DNA from: a virus
IMG/VR virus record: IMGVR_UViG_3300036940_000389
Length of the DNA: 64,000 nt
Reading direction: 5' to 3' (one strand)
The notes beneath the pieces were generated by a model. It searched no databases. It saw only the letters and a program-made list of their open reading frames with translations, and was not told the origin of the DNA. The translations under genes and the position numbers were made by a program. Shown here one piece after another: positions 3,101 through 55,608 of the stretch. The stretch's first letter is position 1. Every line of letters starts with the position of its first letter.

Positions 3101-3524
3101 TTTCAATCTCCTTTGCTTTTATTAAACATGGTCCCCCTTTCATCAGTTCCCTAACTGTGTCTGCGGAAATTTCAAAAATCTTGCCTCCTTGCTCAGTTGA
3201 TGTTGTTGGATCTTTCAGATAGAAAAACTTCACTTCCTCATCCCGAGAATTGAGCCAGTATTCAAGAATAGAATTGCGGCGACTGCTTCTGGCATCCTGT
3301 ATGTGAATAATATGAGTTCCGCATTTTCTCACAACCCAAATGTACTCAAGGAGAAGACTTCTTTTTTCAGCATCCCTTCCAATGATGTAGGCATCCCAGA
3401 GCATGTCGGAGTCATAAAGCTCAATATGCTCACTTCCTATACGGTGCATTTCAGACAATACCGATGGCATAAATGCCTCCTTCGAATCATAGAGTTTCTG
3501 ACCAATACATTTTTGCCAATTCAC
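3090..3524 (-). CDS. hypothetical protein
   Basis: 144-aa ORF, GTG start, overlaps neighbours. Confidence 0.7.
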   Translation of the reverse strand: MNWQKCIGQKLYDSKEAFMPSVLSEMHRIGSEHIELYDSDMLWDAYIIGRDAEKRSLLLEYIWVVRKCGTHIIHIQDARSSRRNSILEYWLNSRDEEVKFFYLKDPTTSTEQGGKIFEISADTVRELMKGGPCLIKAKEIENEA

Positions 3525-3930
3525 TTATTCTTTCCAACACCCTTTCTATTACTAATGGTCCAGGAAGATCATCAGGAAATCCGCATGATAATACACATGG
3601 ACATGGATATCTTGTCGATGTGTGAAATTTCTTTCCCCATCCTCTGATTTGTGATTCTGTTTTATTGAATCTTCTTTTTGCCAGCATATGAAGATTGGCA
3701 AAAGGACTGAACAATTCAACACAGTCTACACAACACCATATTCTGTTTCTTGTTTCGTCATAAATTCCTTTTGTGTTCTTTCCTTTTGTCTCTCCTGATC
3801 CAAAAAGTCTACTTGCTATATAGCTTGGACAAGATTCAAGCTCATCTGAGCATTTTCCATCAAGAACATGTTCCAATTCACGTAGCACTTCATAGTGCCA
3901 GAAAGCTCTTTTTTTGGTAATCGTTGCCAT
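3487..3930 (-). CDS. Cys-rich protein (paralogue of the 1387-2034 N-half)
   Basis: LDGKCSD, CPS, NRIWCCVDC, YPCPCVLS; GAGGTG SD before ATG 3930. Confidence 0.8.
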   Translation of the reverse strand: MATITKKRAFWHYEVLRELEHVLDGKCSDELESCPSYIASRLFGSGETKGKNTKGIYDETRNRIWCCVDCVELFSPFANLHMLAKRRFNKTESQIRGWGKKFHTSTRYPCPCVLSCGFPDDLPGPLVIERVLERISELAKMYWSETL

Positions 3931-21286: not shown

Positions 21287-21673
21287 ATGTCTGAGAGAAC
21301 ACTGAATCCTGATATCAAAGAAATTAACATTGGTATCAAAGAAGTCCATCCGATAAAGATTTATCCCCTCTCTATTCAAGATCAATTCGATATCACGAAC
21401 AGACTCGTTGATGTTATTTCTCAGTTTGGTGATCAAACAAACTTTGAATCAAATGAGGATGCTCTGAAATTTCTGCAGGAGATTATTACAGATAATCTTA
21501 GCGTTATTCTTGAGTACGTGACAACTGAGGATGATCGTCCTACCTTTCGTGATCTAACAAACAATCAGTGCTATGAGATTGCTGAAGTCATTTTTCAAGT
21601 GAACTATGAGGCGTTTGTAAAAAACTCCCAAAACCTGATCGAAAGAGTGATGGAATTGCTTCCCAAGCAGTAG
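21287..21673 (+). CDS. tail assembly chaperone (gpG-like)
   Basis: AAAAAGGAGA SD; position between tube and TMP; A AAA AAC slippery site near the 3' end. Confidence 0.75.
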   Translation: MSERTLNPDIKEINIGIKEVHPIKIYPLSIQDQFDITNRLVDVISQFGDQTNFESNEDALKFLQEIITDNLSVILEYVTTEDDRPTFRDLTNNQCYEIAEVIFQVNYEAFVKNSQNLIERVMELLPKQ

Positions 21674-22065
21674 ATCCTTTCGGTCGGGTTGTATTAACAA
21701 TAATAAATAGTTTCACCCAGTATAGGATAAGCGATTTTTACAATAAACGCTTTTATGATGGGGGATTTCATTTATATCAAGTTCAGATGATGCTTGAATA
21801 TATTGAGGACAAAAAATACAACGAGTATAAGTTTTTTGCAGCATTGTCTGGAATTGATTTGGATAAGGAAATTGAAAAAGCCCCAGAAGATAGAAAAGCT
21901 CTTTTGGATAGACAGCAAAAGAAGCAAGACTTACCAATCTTCAGAGACCCAGAAGAATATGAAGGTCTCAGTGAAGAAGAGAGGGAGCAAAAGACAAAAG
22001 ATATGATAAAAGCACACAAGCAGTGGGTTTCTAAATCCACGAGTTCTAAGAGTGTAGGAACGTAG
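21619..22065 (+). CDS. -1 frameshift extension of the tail chaperone (gpGT-like)
   Basis: -1 frame is open without stops from 21619 to 22065 and includes track ORF 21787-22065. Confidence 0.75.
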   Translation, partial: KKLPKPDRKSDGIASQAVDPFGRVVLTIINSFTQYRISDFYNKRFYDGGFHLYQVQMMLEYIEDKKYNEYKFFAALSGIDLDKEIEKAPEDRKALLDRQQKKQDLPIFRDPEEYEGLSEEEREQKTKDMIKAHKQWVSKSTSSKSVGT

Positions 22066-46663: not shown

Positions 46664-47410
46664 TCATCCCTCTTTTGTATAAAACATGTTATTCTTTCTC
46701 ACATATTCATCGTCTGGATCATCTGCTATGATGGTTGTTTCGTACACTTTGTTTGCTTTGTCATGAGCTTCTATAAGCTCTTTGCACTTGGGACACTCAT
46801 CACACGAATAATATGTTCCCTGTTTATAAATAGGAGAACCACAGGACCAAACATTTGATAATAAATGATCAGGAAGTAATTGTATAATTTCGTGTTTATA
46901 CAATTGATTGCTTGGATTGAACTTTTCTATTTTTTTCTGTCCTATTGTGTTTATGTAGTCAGTTATTGCTTTTGATGAATTGAAAGATTCTTCATCTTCA
47001 TTAGCTTTTTTTGCTTCTTCAAAGTTTTGGCCAGATAGAACCCATGCTTTTTCATATTTTATAGCTATATTTTCTCCATCAAGAAATGCAAAAGTGCCTT
47101 TTATGCTGTTGATTGCAAATTGCGCTGTTATATACATTTGCAGATGAGTAAACCGCATTATAAATGGAGTATCAAGATAAACAGTTCTCAGATTCATTTG
47201 AGGAAAGTAATTCAGAACATTTTTGAGAGACAAATATTCTGGAACAGCGCAATTTTTCCTGTCTTTTTGCTCATGAAACACATATACACAGTGCGTGTCA
47301 GTTTTTTCAGATTTTCCTTTTGTATGCCAATAGTGCAGATTATATAAACTCTCTACACCACTTGTACAAGCAATGAAACAACCCTCTTTTTTATGACGTT
47401 GTTTTGGCAT
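46664..47410 (-). CDS. divergent QueC-like PP-loop ATP pyrophosphatase
   Basis: IACTSGVES (cf. SGGxDS); C-terminal WSC-x12-CDECPKC Zn site. Confidence 0.65.
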   Translation of the reverse strand: MPKQRHKKEGCFIACTSGVESLYNLHYWHTKGKSEKTDTHCVYVFHEQKDRKNCAVPEYLSLKNVLNYFPQMNLRTVYLDTPFIMRFTHLQMYITAQFAINSIKGTFAFLDGENIAIKYEKAWVLSGQNFEEAKKANEDEESFNSSKAITDYINTIGQKKIEKFNPSNQLYKHEIIQLLPDHLLSNVWSCGSPIYKQGTYYSCDECPKCKELIEAHDKANKVYETTIIADDPDDEYVRKNNMFYTKEG

Positions 47411-47425
47411 TATTCTTCTCCTTAT

Positions 47426-47629
47426 TTACATCGTTTCTCGTATAAACTCAGTTCCATGTTCATCTTTGATTTGTTTTTTCAATTTACGATTTTCTTCAAC
47501 CAATTCAGTGTTTCTTTTTTGCAGAACTATATTCTGCATTTTTGTTTCCTTCATGTCATTGAGCACTTTGCTTAAAGCATATTGCAGTGCTTCGATTGTT
47601 GCTTTATCATCAATGTTTATACTCGGCAT
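47426..47629 (-). CDS. small coiled-coil protein
   Basis: 67 aa, AGGAG SD. Confidence 0.6.
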   Translation of the reverse strand: MPSINIDDKATIEALQYALSKVLNDMKETKMQNIVLQKRNTELVEENRKLKKQIKDEHGTEFIRETM

Positions 47630-47647
47630 AATTTACTCCTGTAGTTT

Positions 47648-47839
47648 TTATTTGTGAGATATGAACCACGAAGCAAGTCCTATGAGTGCAATAAATATTG
47701 GTGGCAGCCATAAAGGGGCTAGAATAAATACCCAAGGAATTGGTTCTGGTAAAAATCTACCTAATGCCAGAATGCCACACCAGAATAACAGAAAAACAAA
47801 CAAGAAACCTATTCCTGGAAACACTGATCTGTTTTTCAT
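47648..47839 (-). CDS. two-TM membrane protein
   Basis: FLFVFLLFWCGILA and WVFILAPLWLPPIFIALIG. Confidence 0.7.
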   Translation of the reverse strand: MKNRSVFPGIGFLFVFLLFWCGILALGRFLPEPIPWVFILAPLWLPPIFIALIGLASWFISHK

Positions 47840-48639
47840 TTTCCTATCCTTTCAGTTAAATATTTGTAAGAAAAACCGTAAGCATGAAGATCCTTACAAG
47901 AAAATGTCAGTGGTCCTGGATCGACCCCGATAACATCAGCAACATATTCGTTTAGAAGAGTGAAGCCTCCCATATTTGTAGGGAATCCCCCTACCAAATC
48001 CCACGATCTATATATAACATGAGTAGTGAGACAATTATCAATAACCCTAAAATCAAGACCTCTGAGACAGGGCGAGGTTCTCCTTTCCATCTCATTCTCA
48101 TATGGTATATCGTAAGCAAAGTTAGACTCAGGATAACCAACGCTAAGATAACAATGAGCATTTCCTTTTCCCTTTTTTAGAAAATGTTGAATAATCCATT
48201 CAAGTTGGTTTGGAACATTGATCCAAAGAGTATCTCCATCAACTATATAATCGACTTCTATACTGTTTCCATCAGAACAAAGATATTCCCATCCATTAAT
48301 TGCAGGAAGTTTATACCAGCCTCCAACAATCCAAGTAGCATAACGATAATCTTCATTTGGAGCTAAATTTGAGTCCATAAGATAGTTTGCAAAATATTGT
48401 TCAATTTCGTGATCAGTTGTTGGAGGAGGAAGTGTGCTCGATTCTGGCATTCGTGGAGCTAATGGTCTTTTGTGCGGATGCTGTACAAAACCAGATACAA
48501 AATCAAATGAATATCTGTACTGACCTTCATATGATCCTTTACTTATGTAGTATTTTCTTCCGTGTTCAAAAAGATTCCACAACAAACGAAACCAAGCATC
48601 ATCAAGATCAGTAGCTTCAATAAAAATCGGTTTAAACAT
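47836..48639 (-). CDS. thyA: thymidylate synthase family protein (dUMP-type)
   Basis: SPCL catalytic Cys, YRSWDL, GFPTN (Asn specificity residue), LHAY. Confidence 0.8.
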   Translation of the reverse strand: MFKPIFIEATDLDDAWFRLLWNLFEHGRKYYISKGSYEGQYRYSFDFVSGFVQHPHKRPLAPRMPESSTLPPPTTDHEIEQYFANYLMDSNLAPNEDYRYATWIVGGWYKLPAINGWEYLCSDGNSIEVDYIVDGDTLWINVPNQLEWIIQHFLKKGKGNAHCYLSVGYPESNFAYDIPYENEMERRTSPCLRGLDFRVIDNCLTTHVIYRSWDLVGGFPTNMGGFTLLNEYVADVIGVDPGPLTFSCKDLHAYGFSYKYLTERIGK

Positions 48640-48647
48640 GCATTCTC

Positions 48648-48857
48648 CTATTTAGTTATTATGTCCTTAAAACATTTTAATGTTGCTTTTGAAGAATCAT
48701 TTGAAGGAAAGAATTCTTTAGGGAATTCATAAGAAGGAAAACTTTTTTTATTTTTTATACAATCAATGAGAGTATTTTTATCTTGTATAATATTGTTCAT
48801 TTTTAATTCGATTTGTTCAGAAATACCTTTTTCAAAATATACTTTTGGAAGATTCAC
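48648..48857 (-). CDS. hypothetical protein
   Basis: 69-aa ORF packed in operon. Confidence 0.5.
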   Translation of the reverse strand: MNLPKVYFEKGISEQIELKMNNIIQDKNTLIDCIKNKKSFPSYEFPKEFFPSNDSSKATLKCFKDIITK

Positions 48858-48872
48858 ATTAAGTGAGCACGT

Positions 48873-49073
48873 TCATTCTTCTGTCTCTTTGTTTTTGGAT
48901 ATCTCTGCAAGCAGTTTCATTCCTTCTTTGACTTTTTCTTTCATAGAAGGATGACAAACAAGCTTATTTTCATGTATTTCTACTTCTTGTTTTGGGTTGC
49001 CCTGCTCGTCAAGCATATCTTCTTTTGTATGAATTTCAAGATGTGTGAGAAAATCAAGATTCATATTCATCAC
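48873..49073 (-). CDS. hypothetical protein
   Basis: 66-aa ORF overlapping the GT stop. Confidence 0.55.
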   Translation of the reverse strand: MMNMNLDFLTHLEIHTKEDMLDEQGNPKQEVEIHENKLVCHPSMKEKVKEGMKLLAEISKNKETEE

Positions 49074-50230
49074 GAATACTTCCTTATTATGTCGTGAAAC
49101 ATGTTGGCAATGACATCAGGACTTAGGACTCTTTGAATAAACTCTCTTCCCATCGTTTTTCTATTTTCTAAAGAGTTTTCATCTAATGCATCACACACAT
49201 GCTTCATGAGAAATCCAGTATCTTTTATGTCTGGCTCAGCCCAGCTTTGACTCCCATCATAATTTGGAATCCAGTTCATATGAGCTACAGGAGTCATTTG
49301 ATAGTTTGTCAAAAATGCTGATTTTCCGTCTAATGGTTTTAAGAAATCAACATGTCCACTATAATTTGGAGCAATGCATATGCATCTTCCTGCACAAGCT
49401 TCGGCAAAAGGAATACCAAATCCTTCTGCTCTTGGAATCATTACGAAACAATCACTTTGATTATATATTGAAATCAAATCTTTTTTGCTCATGATATCTC
49501 CAATTAGATATATCGGTGGATATGATTTTAATTTCATATCACTTTTTAATTGTTCTATTTCATTTTTTATGACTTGGAGTTCTCTTTTTGATGTGTTTGA
49601 TCTATACGTTTTCAGTATCAATACCACATCTTCTCTATCATAAAATTCACTGAAATACGCCTTTAATAATCCTATAGGATTTTTTCTTTCTGTCCATTGA
49701 AATACAGATAAAAATTTAAATCTTTTATTTTCACATGGTCCCAAGTCATATCTGCTCTCGCTTTTCTCTTCATTTATAAATTCATTCACGTCTACACAAT
49801 GAGGCAGAACTTCTATTGGAATTTTGATTCCATTTTGAATGTACAATTCTTTGTTGAATTCTGAAGGAACAAGCTGTAAATCAAAATATCTGTTAATTGT
49901 CCGTATCCATTTTTTAGGAAGCTTATCAGTTTCCCATGTGTTATACGCAATATTGATTTTGCCATGCTCAATCTTTATTTGTGCTTCGACAGGAACTTGA
50001 TGATGAACAACGAAATCATAAGAAATATCTCTTTTCTTTAAATCCATTACAAGTTTGCCCTGATCTCCGAAATATGATGCTGGTTGTGGATCTACTTGCT
50101 TTGGTTCTGTTGTGATTTCGAATCCAGCATTGTGTAAAGCAGATACATAATCTCTATTTGCTTGTCCATATCCACTATGACTCAATAACGGACCTTTCCA
50201 TTTTATTCCTATACTTGATTTATTTGTCAT
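49070..50230 (-). CDS. GT-B (GT4-like) glycosyltransferase
   Basis: SGYGQANR, YNTWET, FLSVFQWTERKN, AEGFGIPFAEA. Confidence 0.85.
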   Translation of the reverse strand: MTNKSSIGIKWKGPLLSHSGYGQANRDYVSALHNAGFEITTEPKQVDPQPASYFGDQGKLVMDLKKRDISYDFVVHHQVPVEAQIKIEHGKINIAYNTWETDKLPKKWIRTINRYFDLQLVPSEFNKELYIQNGIKIPIEVLPHCVDVNEFINEEKSESRYDLGPCENKRFKFLSVFQWTERKNPIGLLKAYFSEFYDREDVVLILKTYRSNTSKRELQVIKNEIEQLKSDMKLKSYPPIYLIGDIMSKKDLISIYNQSDCFVMIPRAEGFGIPFAEACAGRCICIAPNYSGHVDFLKPLDGKSAFLTNYQMTPVAHMNWIPNYDGSQSWAEPDIKDTGFLMKHVCDALDENSLENRKTMGREFIQRVLSPDVIANMFHDIIRKYS

Positions 50231-50279
50231 ATCATTTCTCCTGACTTGATTTATTTGTCATATCATTTCTCCTGACTTG
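50213..50279. repeat. perfect 31-bp tandem duplication at the GT-GT junction
   Basis: ACTTGATTTATTTGTCATATCATTTCTCCTG at 50213 and 50244 plus ACTTG. Confidence 0.95.
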
Positions 50280-51532
50280 TTTTTCCCTTCGTCAGGATAA
50301 AACTCGTCTTCGAGAATATCTTTTTGAAAATTACCACACCCATTTATCCAAGCATTTCCAAGTAGTATGGATTCATCACGCACTTTTTCATTATTCATCA
50401 TATTTCTTTCGAAGAATTCTAAGAATCCTCTAGCAATTACACCAGAAGAACAAGCTTTACTCAGTAAATATCCTGGACCATATGATGTGATGAGAGGAAT
50501 TTGATGTTCGTGATCAGGTTTTAATTGAATCAATACATTGTCTGGATTTATTTCTGGATTTCTTCTTGCCATATCAACAAAATCAATGTGTGCTGTATTA
50601 TAGCTAATAATACTAGGCACTCCTAAGAGTTTTGTTTCAACAACTGTCCAAGATAATCCTTCTTGAAATGAAGGGAGTACATGACAATCAAAAACACTAT
50701 AAAGAACAGAAATTTCTATAGGGGATAGTTTTCTACTGTTCATATTATGTGATAAGTTCTCTGCTGGTATGTTGAATTCTTCAGCAATTCTTTGAATACT
50801 GTACACATGATCAATATTATCAAGATGCAAATAAAGAAGCATGTCTTTTCTGAATTCTAGTGCTTCAGAGAATCCCTTAATTGTATTGTATATATTTTTT
50901 CGTATTTGATTGTTTGTAACAAATCCGAAAACAGGACAATTATCACTAATATTTGGAAATAATTGTTTTCTGACATCCATTTTCTCTTCATGTAACAATG
51001 GATTGTACAAATCCAAATATCTGAGTTTAGGTCTATAGTATTTTGCAGAGAGCACTTCATTTTTTATGAGATTGTATCCAAACTCTGAATACACATATAC
51101 CTGATCTGGATATTTGAGCCAGAGTATCCAATCATTTCTAATTTTATCAATATCGTAAGGAACAATTGCTTTCCAAATAAATCCACATCTTTTTTGTGCT
51201 TTTTTAATATTGTCAAATATTTCTACATATCTCCAAATATCAATTCCTATAAAAACAACAATATCAATCTCAACATCGTATAATATATTCAAAAGTTTGT
51301 TTTTGCCCCAAGGATCACTTCCTTCTTGTGCAAGAATTGTTTTGCAATTAATGCTTGATGAATATTCAAATGGATCACCCATTGAAGTTACTGATGGTAC
51401 ATCTTTTAAAAAAGCACACACATCATACTTTTCAGGATCAATATCTTCTAAGCAAGCACCAAGCATATTTCCATTTCCTGAAAAACAATCAGGATTTTGT
51501 CCAACAAGCAATACTCTTTTTTTCTGTGTCAT
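50258..51532 (-). CDS. GT-B (GT4-like) glycosyltransferase
   Basis: SGNGNM, FGFVTNNQIRKN, DCHVLPSFQEGLSWTVVETKLLGVP. Confidence 0.85.
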   Translation of the reverse strand: MTQKKRVLLVGQNPDCFSGNGNMLGACLEDIDPEKYDVCAFLKDVPSVTSMGDPFEYSSSINCKTILAQEGSDPWGKNKLLNILYDVEIDIVVFIGIDIWRYVEIFDNIKKAQKRCGFIWKAIVPYDIDKIRNDWILWLKYPDQVYVYSEFGYNLIKNEVLSAKYYRPKLRYLDLYNPLLHEEKMDVRKQLFPNISDNCPVFGFVTNNQIRKNIYNTIKGFSEALEFRKDMLLYLHLDNIDHVYSIQRIAEEFNIPAENLSHNMNSRKLSPIEISVLYSVFDCHVLPSFQEGLSWTVVETKLLGVPSIISYNTAHIDFVDMARRNPEINPDNVLIQLKPDHEHQIPLITSYGPGYLLSKACSSGVIARGFLEFFERNMMNNEKVRDESILLGNAWINGCGNFQKDILEDEFYPDEGKNKSGEMI

Positions 51533-51548: not shown

Positions 51549-51755
51549 TTATGCACAATCTGAGCAAATATTTGTTTCCAAAAGATCAATTTCTTCATCC
51601 ATTAAATGAGGGAAGAATTCCATTGTAGATCTTGCTTGCCTTTGATTGACTATTTGATCCAGATATTCCTCATAATCTTCTTCATTCACAAAAAATGAAT
51701 ACTCCCTTTTGCAAACACTACATTGAACAGTAATCTTGCAATCTCTCAGCTTCAT
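51549..51755 (-). CDS. small zinc-binding phage protein
   Basis: CSVC..FFPHLMDEEIDLLETNICSDC. Confidence 0.65.
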   Translation of the reverse strand: MKLRDCKITVQCSVCKREYSFFVNEEDYEEYLDQIVNQRQARSTMEFFPHLMDEEIDLLETNICSDCA

Positions 51756-52336
51756 TACATTCTCCTTACATTTCCTTGTTTGACATCAAATACGGCATCT
51801 GCTTGATCTACTATATCATTCTCATGTGATGATATGATCATTTGCAATCCTAATTCATCTGCTAGATATCTGAGTGTGTTTGCTGCTTTGGGCATAAGAT
51901 TTGCTGATAAATTGCGAAACGGCTCATCCAGCACTATTACAGGAGAAGATTTTTCCAATTTCCAATCAGCAAGACGAAGTGCAAAAGCAATAGTATCCAT
52001 TACTCCACCACCAACAGCAAATTTGGGCTTTATTTTCTCTTCATCTTTTAGCAACCAAAAGTCACACTCAGTCTTATTTCTTCTTTCTATGAATTCAGGA
52101 TGAAATACGTATGGATGATCGAAAATAATTTGCAGTGCTTTTGTGACTAGAGATGAAAAATGGTGCTCAATATTTTTTTGAGTTTCCTTTGCTGCAAGCT
52201 GTAATATTATTTTTGCTTCTTGAATTGCTTCTTTTTCATATTCATGCTGCTGGATTTTATTTTTATCTTTTTCAATCGACTGCTCAAGCACCTTCTTTTG
52301 TGCTCTGCAATCATTTATTCTTTGCTCAAGGGACAT
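51755..52336 (-). CDS. sbcC: Rad50/SbcC-like ATPase, C-terminal half
   Basis: coiled coil; signature-like VGGG; Walker B VIVLDEPF; H-loop IISSH. Confidence 0.8.
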   Translation of the reverse strand: MSLEQRINDCRAQKKVLEQSIEKDKNKIQQHEYEKEAIQEAKIILQLAAKETQKNIEHHFSSLVTKALQIIFDHPYVFHPEFIERRNKTECDFWLLKDEEKIKPKFAVGGGVMDTIAFALRLADWKLEKSSPVIVLDEPFRNLSANLMPKAANTLRYLADELGLQMIISSHENDIVDQADAVFDVKQGNVRRM

Positions 52337-53542: not shown

Positions 53543-54598
53543 TTAGGATAGAGTTTGTTCACAAAGCGGGCAAATTTTTATTTTCTCTTTAAATTGTTCA
53601 AGATCATGTGCAGCTTTTCCTTGCTCATTTGCAAGCGTTTCCACAAGCTTTTTTTGTTTTCTTAGGTCAGAGTTCAGCTTCGTGATTTGATCAAAATCCA
53701 AAGCGTCCTCTTCTTTGATATGAAGCTCGATTTGATTGATTAGTGACTTGAGCTTTTTGCTGTGAGGATTGATTTTATTTATGAGTTTTTGAGTTTTGTG
53801 TATGTTGGAAACAGTATTTTTGATTCTCGTGATTTTTTCTTGCTCACTGTGCAGATCATTTATCGTGTTTCCTAGTTCATTAACACGTTTTTCCAGCTTT
53901 CTTATAGTCTTTTCTTTGGAAATTGTGTTTCTGAGATCCTCAGTTTTCTCAACTATATTGTTGATTTTTTTGATTTGTATTCTGGATTGATCTGCTTTTT
54001 TTGATACACCTTGATATTTGGAAAAGATTTTTTCAATATAAGAGAAGTTTTTGTACTTGGCCAATCTTTCTTCATTTTCTTTTATTTGCTCATTGAGATG
54101 CTTTATAGCTGAGTTCTGTCTGGAGTATAAAAGATTGACGTATGATAGACTTCTATCAATTTGATCAATGCCAACTACTTGATTCAGTTTTTTTGCAATA
54201 TCTCCTGGCTGATCAGAGAGTAAAAAATAGGGATCATCTTGAAGCTGAATATTGACTGGTAATATTTTTATTATCTCGTCTATTTCTTTAGGAACAGATG
54301 TTCTCACAGCATCAAAAGTTTGATTATTTATTTTGTAGCTATTTGTGTTTTTGCTACGGATTCTTTTGATTGAGTTTTTGTTTGAGGTTATTTCTATACT
54401 GCAACTGGATTTTCCCCATGTTATAAAAGCATTCCCACTTGGCTTATTGAAAAACAACCAATACAATGCTCTTATTATTGAGGACTTCCCTTGATCTGAT
54501 TCTCCAGTAATTACGTTGATTCCCCTTGATAATTCAAGGTACGATCTTCTATGTGATTGAAAGTTTTTTAAATGCAGAGAATCGATAAATTCATGCAT
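53543..54598 (-). CDS. sbcC: Rad50/SbcC-like ATPase, N-terminal half ending at the zinc hook
   Basis: LKNFQSH, Walker A GESDQGKSS, Q-loop IQLQ, coiled coil, terminal CPLC. Confidence 0.85.
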   Translation of the reverse strand: MHEFIDSLHLKNFQSHRRSYLELSRGINVITGESDQGKSSIIRALYWLFFNKPSGNAFITWGKSSCSIEITSNKNSIKRIRSKNTNSYKINNQTFDAVRTSVPKEIDEIIKILPVNIQLQDDPYFLLSDQPGDIAKKLNQVVGIDQIDRSLSYVNLLYSRQNSAIKHLNEQIKENEERLAKYKNFSYIEKIFSKYQGVSKKADQSRIQIKKINNIVEKTEDLRNTISKEKTIRKLEKRVNELGNTINDLHSEQEKITRIKNTVSNIHKTQKLINKINPHSKKLKSLINQIELHIKEEDALDFDQITKLNSDLRKQKKLVETLANEQGKAAHDLEQFKEKIKICPLCEQTLS

Positions 54599-55118: not shown

Positions 55119-55192
55119 TGGAGCGGAAACCAGGACTCGAACCTGGATCTACAGTCGGGAAGACTGGGCTCTACCAATTGAGCTATTTCCGC
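55119..55192 (-). tRNA. tRNA-Gly body with shortened anticodon arm (74 nt, CCA encoded)
   Basis: GCGGAAA/TTTCCGC acceptor, U73-CCA, GCTC/GAGC D stem, TTCGAGT T loop; CAGTC-TTCCC-GACTG gives a 5-nt loop. Confidence 0.85.
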
Positions 55193-55199
55193 TTAGTGT

Positions 55200-55324
55200 G
55201 TGGGGAGGCAGGATTTGAACCTGCATGATCGGATTGTGCGACCTTGCGTTGACTTATCCCTATATAAGTTCGCACCGATCTCTGGAAGTCTTGCCATAGC
55301 GTCTACCAATTCCGCCACTCCCCA
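55200..55324 (-). ncRNA. tRNA-like RNA (class II D arm) with degenerate anticodon arm and ~58-nt branched variable arm
   Basis: TGGGGAG/CTCCCCA acceptor, TGGCGGAATTGGTAGACGC D arm, GCAGG-TTCAAAT-CCTGC T arm; GATCGG/CCGATC, GTGCGA/TCGCAC and ACTTAT/ATAAGT stems. Confidence 0.75.
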
Positions 55325-55338
55325 CAATTTTTTGATAT

Positions 55339-55608
55339 CTACTTCCAATGATTCACTGAGGCTTTCCGGAATTGCTTGAACTTCTTTTCAAGCTCAGAAG
55401 TCATTTTTCGACAACGCTTGGAAGCAGCAGCAAAGCGCATAGCCTTATCAAGTTCAGCATGAAGTGCAGTGATATTTTCTTGAAGATCAGCAACCATTTC
55501 TTCACTGAGATCGAGTTCTTCAGTAGGCTTTGCTGGCTTTTCTGCTGCCTTTTTCTTTGTTGGCTTTTCTACCGGCTTTTCTGTTGCTTTCCGTGTTTTC
55601 TTTGCCAT
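55339..55608 (-). CDS. histone H1-like protein (Hc1 family) with K/P/A-rich N-terminus
   Basis: AAASKRCRKMTSELEKKFKQFRKASV matches the Hc1 AA.R.RK.S.ELEK..K.FRK.S pattern. Confidence 0.7.
   Translation of the reverse strand: MAKKTRKATEKPVEKPTKKKAAEKPAKPTEELDLSEEMVADLQENITALHAELDKAMRFAAASKRCRKMTSELEKKFKQFRKASVNHWK

Follow-up and report, generated by a model that had tools for sequence, protein, structure and literature searches.

The usual explanation for tRNA genes in phages is that they supply spare decoders in place of host tRNAs that defences have cut. Among the closest described systems, the staphylococcal non-proteogenic tRNA-Gly species NP1-NP3, which have Fem partners, carry TGC or TGT in the T loop, the pairs A49-U65, U50-A64 and A51-U63, and a full-length anticodon arm with UCC, and their EF-Tu affinity is given as -9.6 kcal/mol, or as -9.5 kcal/mol by calculation (PMC7826273; PMC3239215). 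A precedent for phage use of Gly-tRNA off the ribosome is the Mom protein of phage Mu, which hypermodifies DNA with Gly-tRNA-Gly and uses host tRNAs for this (PMC13219725). A few phage tRNAs with non-standard loop sizes have been mentioned (PMC5009743); a phage tRNA-Gly whose loop has 5 or 6 nt is described in no paper that our literature search returned. The gene described here has such a loop and is probably, to judge from sequence comparison, a maintained non-translating tRNA serving as a decoy or as a glycine donor.

The window, i.e. the whole stretch of 64,000 nucleotides that was analysed, belongs to a phage contig of 89,286 bases (84% complete and of the provirus class according to CheckV) that is met in oil-field and subsurface metagenomes; contigs of greater length, up to 93.6 kb, exist as well. 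The contig encodes a portal and capsid of the lambda family and a long ORF of tape-measure size, together with a minus-strand block of T4-type recombination genes (SSB, UvsX/RecA, 5'-3' exonuclease, Hc1-like basic protein, endonuclease VII, SbcC and SbcD). The tRNA-Gly gene has the Hc1-like gene on its upstream side and endonuclease VII on its downstream side, and is preceded at a distance of 6 nt by another tRNA-shaped RNA. The features of this slot are as follows (comparison loci are given by L numbers):

55119-55192, minus strand: 74-nt gene apparently derived from tRNA-Gly(CCC); CCA is encoded, the D loop (G18 G19) and the T loop are canonical, and the anticodon arm is 2 nt short
55152-55166, minus strand: anticodon arm, with a 5-bp stem (27-31 / 39-43) and the 5-nt loop UUCCC at 55161-55157
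55130-55146, minus strand: T arm with C49-G65, C50-G64 and A51-U63, predicted to bind EF-Tu weakly
55119-55129, minus strand: 3' acceptor strand with G71, C72, U73 and CCA, matching the identity set of bacterial GlyRS as well as the recognition sets of TacT (U73 and G71) and FaRel2 (pairs 1, 2, 4 and 5)
55199-55325, minus strand: upstream tRNA-shaped RNA with a Leu-like D arm, a T arm and a long private middle
L005, approximately 3459-3571; L008, approximately 291-397; L002, 3446-3534: counterparts of this upstream RNA
55339-55608, minus strand: upstream histone H1-like gene (Hc1, PF07432), marking the syntenic slot in L005, L008 and L337
54615-55100, minus strand: downstream endonuclease VII, starting 18 nt past the tRNA CCA

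The upstream RNA is unrecognised by ARAGORN and Rfam. Its D, T and acceptor arms are kept, while the middle differs completely from one relative to the next and has been replaced wholesale in L005 and L008; the RNA is absent in L337. A scan for promoters and terminators yielded counts no better than chance. Elsewhere in the block, the SbcC/Rad50-like ATPase is split into two genes (53543-54598 and 51755-52336, minus strand) that are separated by SbcD and an ORF of 82 aa, as is also the case in L005 and L337. At L322:3805-6726 an SNF2 helicase contains a Hint/LAGLIDADG insertion, which is probably an intein.

The short-looped tRNA-Gly gene is real. ARAGORN calls it on the minus strand from 55192 to 55119 with the anticodon tcc, Rfam model RF00005 matches it with 56.3 bits against a gathering score of 29 (E 1.9e-9) and with a gap in the anticodon loop, and minimum-free-energy folding gives a cloverleaf whose anticodon stem has 5 bp and whose anticodon loop has 5 nt (z -3.2), in which the loop-closing pair C31-G39 has a predicted probability of 1.0. 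It is the sole tRNA of the 89-kb contig that ARAGORN or Rfam recognises, and lowering the ARAGORN threshold on the contig produced noise only. An earlier note, made from the letters of the window, had described a 74-nt tRNA-Gly with G1-C72, C2-G71, U73, CCA and A51-U63; these are all present, as is G3-C70. The gene is identical letter for letter in ten other JGI/Logan assemblies, five of which have flanks that differ by 0.3-0.8%, and is unchanged in two sequencing runs (one of which may be the source sample), which rules out an assembly or sequencing error. Two other identities were rejected: YrlA (RF02553) scores 19.7 bits against 69 (E 1.1) through a chance match that spans the two adjacent tRNA shapes, and a free CCA is present; and for the remnant of a tRNA att site, no 12-mer of the gene occurs elsewhere in the contig.

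In its RF00005 score, its acceptor, D and T arms and its encoded CCA the gene is like a canonical phage tRNA-Gly; it differs in the anticodon arm and the T stem. The linker from D stem to T stem has 21 nt, consisting of C26, the 5-bp stem, the loop and five variable bases. As controls we used 110 distinct viral tRNA-Gly genes among the matches listed, obtained with a pattern that permitted a 21-nt linker: among these the linker measured 22 or 23 nt in every case, A37 was present in 108 of 108, A51-U63 in 6 of 108 and C49-G65 in none of 108. A translating tRNA-Gly has a 7-nt loop with U33 and a purine at position 37, and a tight-binding T stem that offsets the weakness of glycine; the loop here has 5 nt and no purine 37.

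The affinity for EF-Tu was estimated with the additive T-stem model of PMC3239215 on the Phe-tRNA scale. C49-G65, C50-G64 and A51-U63 together give a predicted -9.2 kcal/mol, whereas bacterial tRNA-Gly averages -11.0 +/- 0.34 with the anticodon CCC and -10.8 +/- 0.68 with UCC (PMC3239215). The window value is weaker than that of all 96 scorable viral controls among the matches listed (mean -10.74, sd 0.39, weakest -9.4). Its relatives L337 and L006, the latter with A51-C63, are predicted at -9.4 and -10.1 kcal/mol, respectively. The earlier note had ascribed a weak EF-Tu contact to A51-U63; C49-G65 adds to this, and the predicted weakness is larger than it had stated. The loop and the T stem thus point, as two separate features, away from the ribosome.

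With the staphylococcal NP1-NP3 the gene shares the glycine acceptor identity, A51-U63 and a similarly weak predicted affinity for EF-Tu, and on this model it probably resembles the non-proteogenic tRNAs in avoiding EF-Tu. Unlike them, it keeps TTC in the T loop together with G18G19, has lost two loop bases and is borne by a phage with no Fem gene found in its contig (84% complete); it is not a tRNA of the staphylococcal type. A second group of look-alikes came from a pattern that combined a 21-base linker with a G1-C72/C2-G71/U73-CCA end and returned 15 viral and 39 bacterial matches. Several bacterial ones (L044, L049, L052, L053, L062, L064, L069 and L079) adjoin RtcB, RtcR or Band-7 genes in Proteobacteria, and the T stem is weak in several of them. 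Next to these genes, tandem pairs of tRNA-like sequences whose anticodon arms have a 5-bp stem and a 5-nt loop (L044, L049, L052, L053, L062, L064, L068, L069, L072, L079 and L082) were seen in Methylococcales, Thiothrix and rhizobia, where the anticodons given by ARAGORN are arbitrary; gene context indicates that they are probably the predicted b7a-tRNA (10.1101/312249). The 5-bp stem, 5-nt loop and acceptor end that they have in common with the window gene are forced by the search pattern. Their loops vary freely, without CCC, and they form tandem pairs in RNA-repair operons, while the window phage has no Band-7, RtcB or Ro60/TROVE gene in its contig (PF01145, PF01139, PF05731) and the neighbours of its tRNA are the Hc1-like gene and endonuclease VII. 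A broader pattern found short-armed tRNA shapes with many acceptor types, and the design is therefore not limited to glycine; a pattern scan of metagenomes gave mostly chance matches or Gly(CCC) genes one base short. The window gene, which is real and conserved, belongs to none of the staphylococcal, b7a-tRNA and YrlA families.

A DNA-pattern search of IMG/VR recovered no relatives of the gene, and cultured phages showed generic tRNA-Gly similarity only; the orthologous loci L005, L008, L006 and L337 were found through flanking proteins. Endonuclease VII of L005, L008 and L006 is 93%, 78% and about 72% identical to that of the window, and all three have the same anticodon stem and 5-nt loop, with A at position 26 where the window has C. 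The flanking proteins of L337 are more distant (exonuclease 59%, RecA 68% and SbcC 42% identical), and its tRNA gene occupies the same slot, where it is preceded by a terminator-like hairpin and followed by a different nuclease. Here the loop has 6 nt, ACCCAA, without U33 and without UCC, while C31-G39, G1-C72, C2-G71, U73, CCA and A51-U63 are kept and every stem is intact. Ten of the 12 differences outside the loop make up five compensatory pairs (5-68, 6-67, 13-22, 30-40 and 49-65, counted by hand-numbered positions). Across the five orthologues, the window included, the loop is short and contains CCC in all five and A51-U63 is found in four. A normal 7-nt loop in relatives, which according to the earlier note would speak against its reading, did not turn up among the orthologues found; three carry the same 5-nt loop and the fourth a differently shortened one.

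Both short loops derive most simply from a Gly(CCC) loop, UUCCCAA, with loss of AA in the window line and loss of one U plus a U-to-A change in the L337 line; this ancestry takes 3 events, against about 6 for CUUCCAA. It points to tRNA-Gly(CCC) as the ancestor and, because both loops are most simply derived in this way, the UCC anticodon called by ARAGORN appears unlikely. Of the two registers proposed previously, L337 favours the 5-bp stem with loop UUCCC and positions 37-38 missing, and UCC with C37 and no nt 26 is the less parsimonious. The anticodon that annotation tools assign in cases like this one, here UCC, is probably incorrect.

Conservation was compared with fourfold-degenerate sites of adjacent genes. 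L006 differs from the window at 3 of 59 tRNA positions versus 17 of 32 such sites (Fisher p 3e-7), and L008 at 4 of 74 versus 18 of 72 (Fisher p 0.001). L005, at 7 of 74 versus 33 of 251 (p 0.55), is no better than neutral and has three private pair-breaking changes, C2U, G19A and U66C (pairs 2-71, 19-56 and 7-66); this copy looks to be decaying. L006 has A51-C63 and G57A in a mosaic flank whose SbcC is only 30% identical. The comparison comprises five sequences with mosaic flanks, and a single study supplied at least three of the four relatives. In L003, L007, L083, L323 and L338 the slot is without a tRNA, and the first three have a hairpin at the equivalent place. In L005 an Acb2/Tad1-like anti-defence gene (L005:3228-3440; PF24729, E 8e-22) is situated just upstream of the two RNAs, and a 96-aa ORF follows them.

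From the short loop conserved in relatives and the weak predicted EF-Tu binding, the non-translating reading of the earlier note looks right, and we consider it likely that this is a selected, non-decoding tRNA-Gly that acts via its acceptor end. The statement as a whole, that a descendant of tRNA-Gly(CCC) has been kept by selection, shut out of translation and put to use as a decoy, is given a probability of roughly 0.35. It begins with a tRNA whose acceptor, D and T arms and CCA are intact, whose loop is shortened and whose T stem is weak, and which is maintained in most of the relatives that carry it, in the form of two different short loops. This RNA would be co-transcribed with the recombination operon and released by host RNase P and 3' trimming; its 5-nt loop would present no anticodon and its T stem would be poorly bound by EF-Tu, leaving the RNA free. 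The mechanism up to this point has, taken together, a good chance of being correct. In the last and least certain step, the free Gly-type acceptor end, charged or not, may soak up host effectors that target tRNA-Gly, i.e. toxSAS of the FaRel2 type and GNAT toxins of the TacT type, so that host tRNA-Gly is spared during infection.

FaRel2 recognises four acceptor determinants, pairs 1, 2, 4 and 5 (10.1101/2024.07.05.602228), and TacT the pair U73/G71 (PMC9976931). The acceptor satisfies all of these; however, they are common to any tRNA-Gly, and the match is not specific. The decoy is also favoured by conservation above neutral in L006 and L008, by the five compensatory pairs and the short loop with CCC in all orthologues, by a predicted EF-Tu affinity weaker than that of every scorable control among the matches listed, and by the variable slot, with its patchy and sometimes decaying distribution and the anti-defence gene in L005. 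Furthermore, the contig yielded no partner gene, and a decoy would work without one. On the other side, the L005 copy diverges at the neutral rate with its three pairs broken, the phages are mosaic and recent module exchange could inflate the apparent conservation, the compensatory changes may predate the loss of loop bases, and the relatives come largely from one study (at least 3 of 4).

A further objection concerns charging. The bacterial GlyRS identity set, U73, G1-C72, C2-G71, G3-C70, C35 and C36 (PMC9976931), is present in the letters of the gene. GlyRS reads C35 strongly, by 105- to 1500-fold, and stacking of C36-A37-A38 steadies the anticodon loop; a tRNA-Gly minihelix is nevertheless charged by GlyRS (PMC9908026). 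The intact charging determinants of the earlier note hold for the letters, though perhaps not for the geometry of a 5-nt loop; charging seems plausible but possibly poor.

Somewhat unlikely, in our estimate, is a role as glycyl donor, in which host GlyRS would charge the tRNA, EF-Tu and the ribosome would pass it over, and its glycine would go to a tRNA-dependent transferase (Mom-like or of another GNAT fold) that modifies phage DNA or another target. The design logic would be that of the staphylococcal tRNA-Gly with A51-U63 (PMC7826273), the charged minihelix and the Mu Mom reaction lend it chemistry, and the phage has a gene set of DNA-modification type (TAGT, GT4s, QueC-like, TS-like). Yet the contig, 84% complete, gave no match to a tRNA-dependent transferase: neither Mom (PF25680, and tblastn of Mu Mom), nor four GNAT families (PF22559, PF00583, PF13302 and PF13480), nor FemAB or LPG synthase. 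Mom, moreover, works with all ordinary host isoacceptors, so that a special tRNA is not required. The decoy is ranked above the donor because no Mom, GNAT, Fem or RtcB partner was found in this contig. The modification set just mentioned (L321:1142-6111; window 46664-51532) consists of a TET-associated glycosyltransferase (PF20691), an NDP-sugar epimerase, a UDG-like protein, two glycosyltransferases, and QueC-like and thymidylate-synthase-like proteins.

An unrelated gut-phage lineage in IMG/VR offers a parallel in favour of the donor and provides the best candidate for a dedicated glycyl-donor tRNA. At 28 loci (L087:183-255; e.g. L088, L091, L104, L143 and L151) its tRNA-Gly has a weak T stem and the 6-nt loop AUUCCA and lacks an encoded CCA; the sole scorable variant is predicted at -8.9 kcal/mol, and the first seven acceptor bases are the same as in the window gene. 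Directly downstream lies one of three interchangeable cassettes: GNAT with amidoligase-GNAT, a DAM-like-GNAT fusion, or an opine-dehydrogenase-like gene with GNAT. PF22559 was present in 20 of 20 short-loop records tested from this lineage and in 0 of 42 records with a normal tRNA-Gly; however, the 20 form one clade and count as about one independent observation. Among 26 short-loop viral records the Mom family exceeded its cut-off in one, which does not amount to a link. In a single case, the viral record L037 (G029), a Gly-acceptor tRNA with a 6-nt loop and a weak T stem occurs with a Mom-family gene (E 6e-33) elsewhere in the 22 kb. We suggest, quite tentatively, that unrelated phages have repeatedly made tRNA-Gly chargeable but ribosome-excluded, as a private glycyl donor for GNAT-fold enzymes or a defence decoy, and that the window and gut-phage genes may be two independent cases of an undescribed class. 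If true, a selected phage tRNA that is unable to decode would represent a second use of such genes, protecting or exploiting the acceptor end. The gene is small and can be tested cheaply against the characterised toxins FaRel2, TacT and CapRel and against Mom-type enzymes.

We regard it as unlikely that the gene is a relic pseudo-tRNA, for which selection ended at the loss of loop bases and recent module exchange explains the apparent conservation. The neutral erosion of L005, the two changes in L006, the patchy presence and the mosaic flanks would all agree with decay; against it, L006 and L008 lie well below neutral divergence, the 5-nt loop is identical in four genomes whose endonuclease VII is 71-93% identical, and the distant L337 is likewise short-looped with every stem and CCA intact, with no normal-loop orthologue found.

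RNase P needs only the top half of a tRNA. It is conceivable, though decidedly unlikely, that the two tRNA shapes are a processing signal, recruiting RNase P and 3' trimming to cut the recombination message before endonuclease VII, and that the released RNA is jobless. The two RNAs do stand head to tail within an operon on one strand, with endonuclease VII beginning 18 nt after them, and the tRNA-less L003, L007 and L083 have their hairpin at the equivalent place. This would leave the kept glycine identity, the kept CCC and the weak T stem unexplained, and in L337 the gene precedes a different nuclease and follows a terminator-like hairpin.

The earlier note had also raised a nuclease-resistant variant. 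Phage tRNAs have been proposed to escape anticodon nucleases through loop changes (PMC10264068), and ARAGORN's tcc in a 7-nt loop, with C32-G38 open, would serve GGA, the main Gly codon of the phage (745 of 1314). We find a working decoder of this kind very unlikely: it needs C37, where the 108 controls among the matches listed all have A, an arm one pair short and the opening of a C-G pair predicted closed with probability 1.0; L337 has neither U33 nor UCC, the ancestry of the loops favours CCC, whose codon GGG is the least used for glycine (114 of 1314), and the weak T stem is wrong for glycine.

A loop two bases short suggests a counterpart to phage tRNAs with four-base anticodons: a two-base decoder that would read GG and thereby shift the frame by -1 in a phage gene dedicated to it. 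This is hardly credible, given that loop length varies between orthologues (5 versus 6), that predicted EF-Tu binding is weak, and that a coding-potential scan of the whole contig found every major ORF with its own start and no Gly-linked frameshift target, its sole frameshift candidate having an ordinary A AAA AAC site. This candidate is a tail-assembly-chaperone-like pair in the window (21287-22065, plus strand) with a -1 overlap, its slippery site at about 21619-21625, ahead of a 1647-aa ORF.
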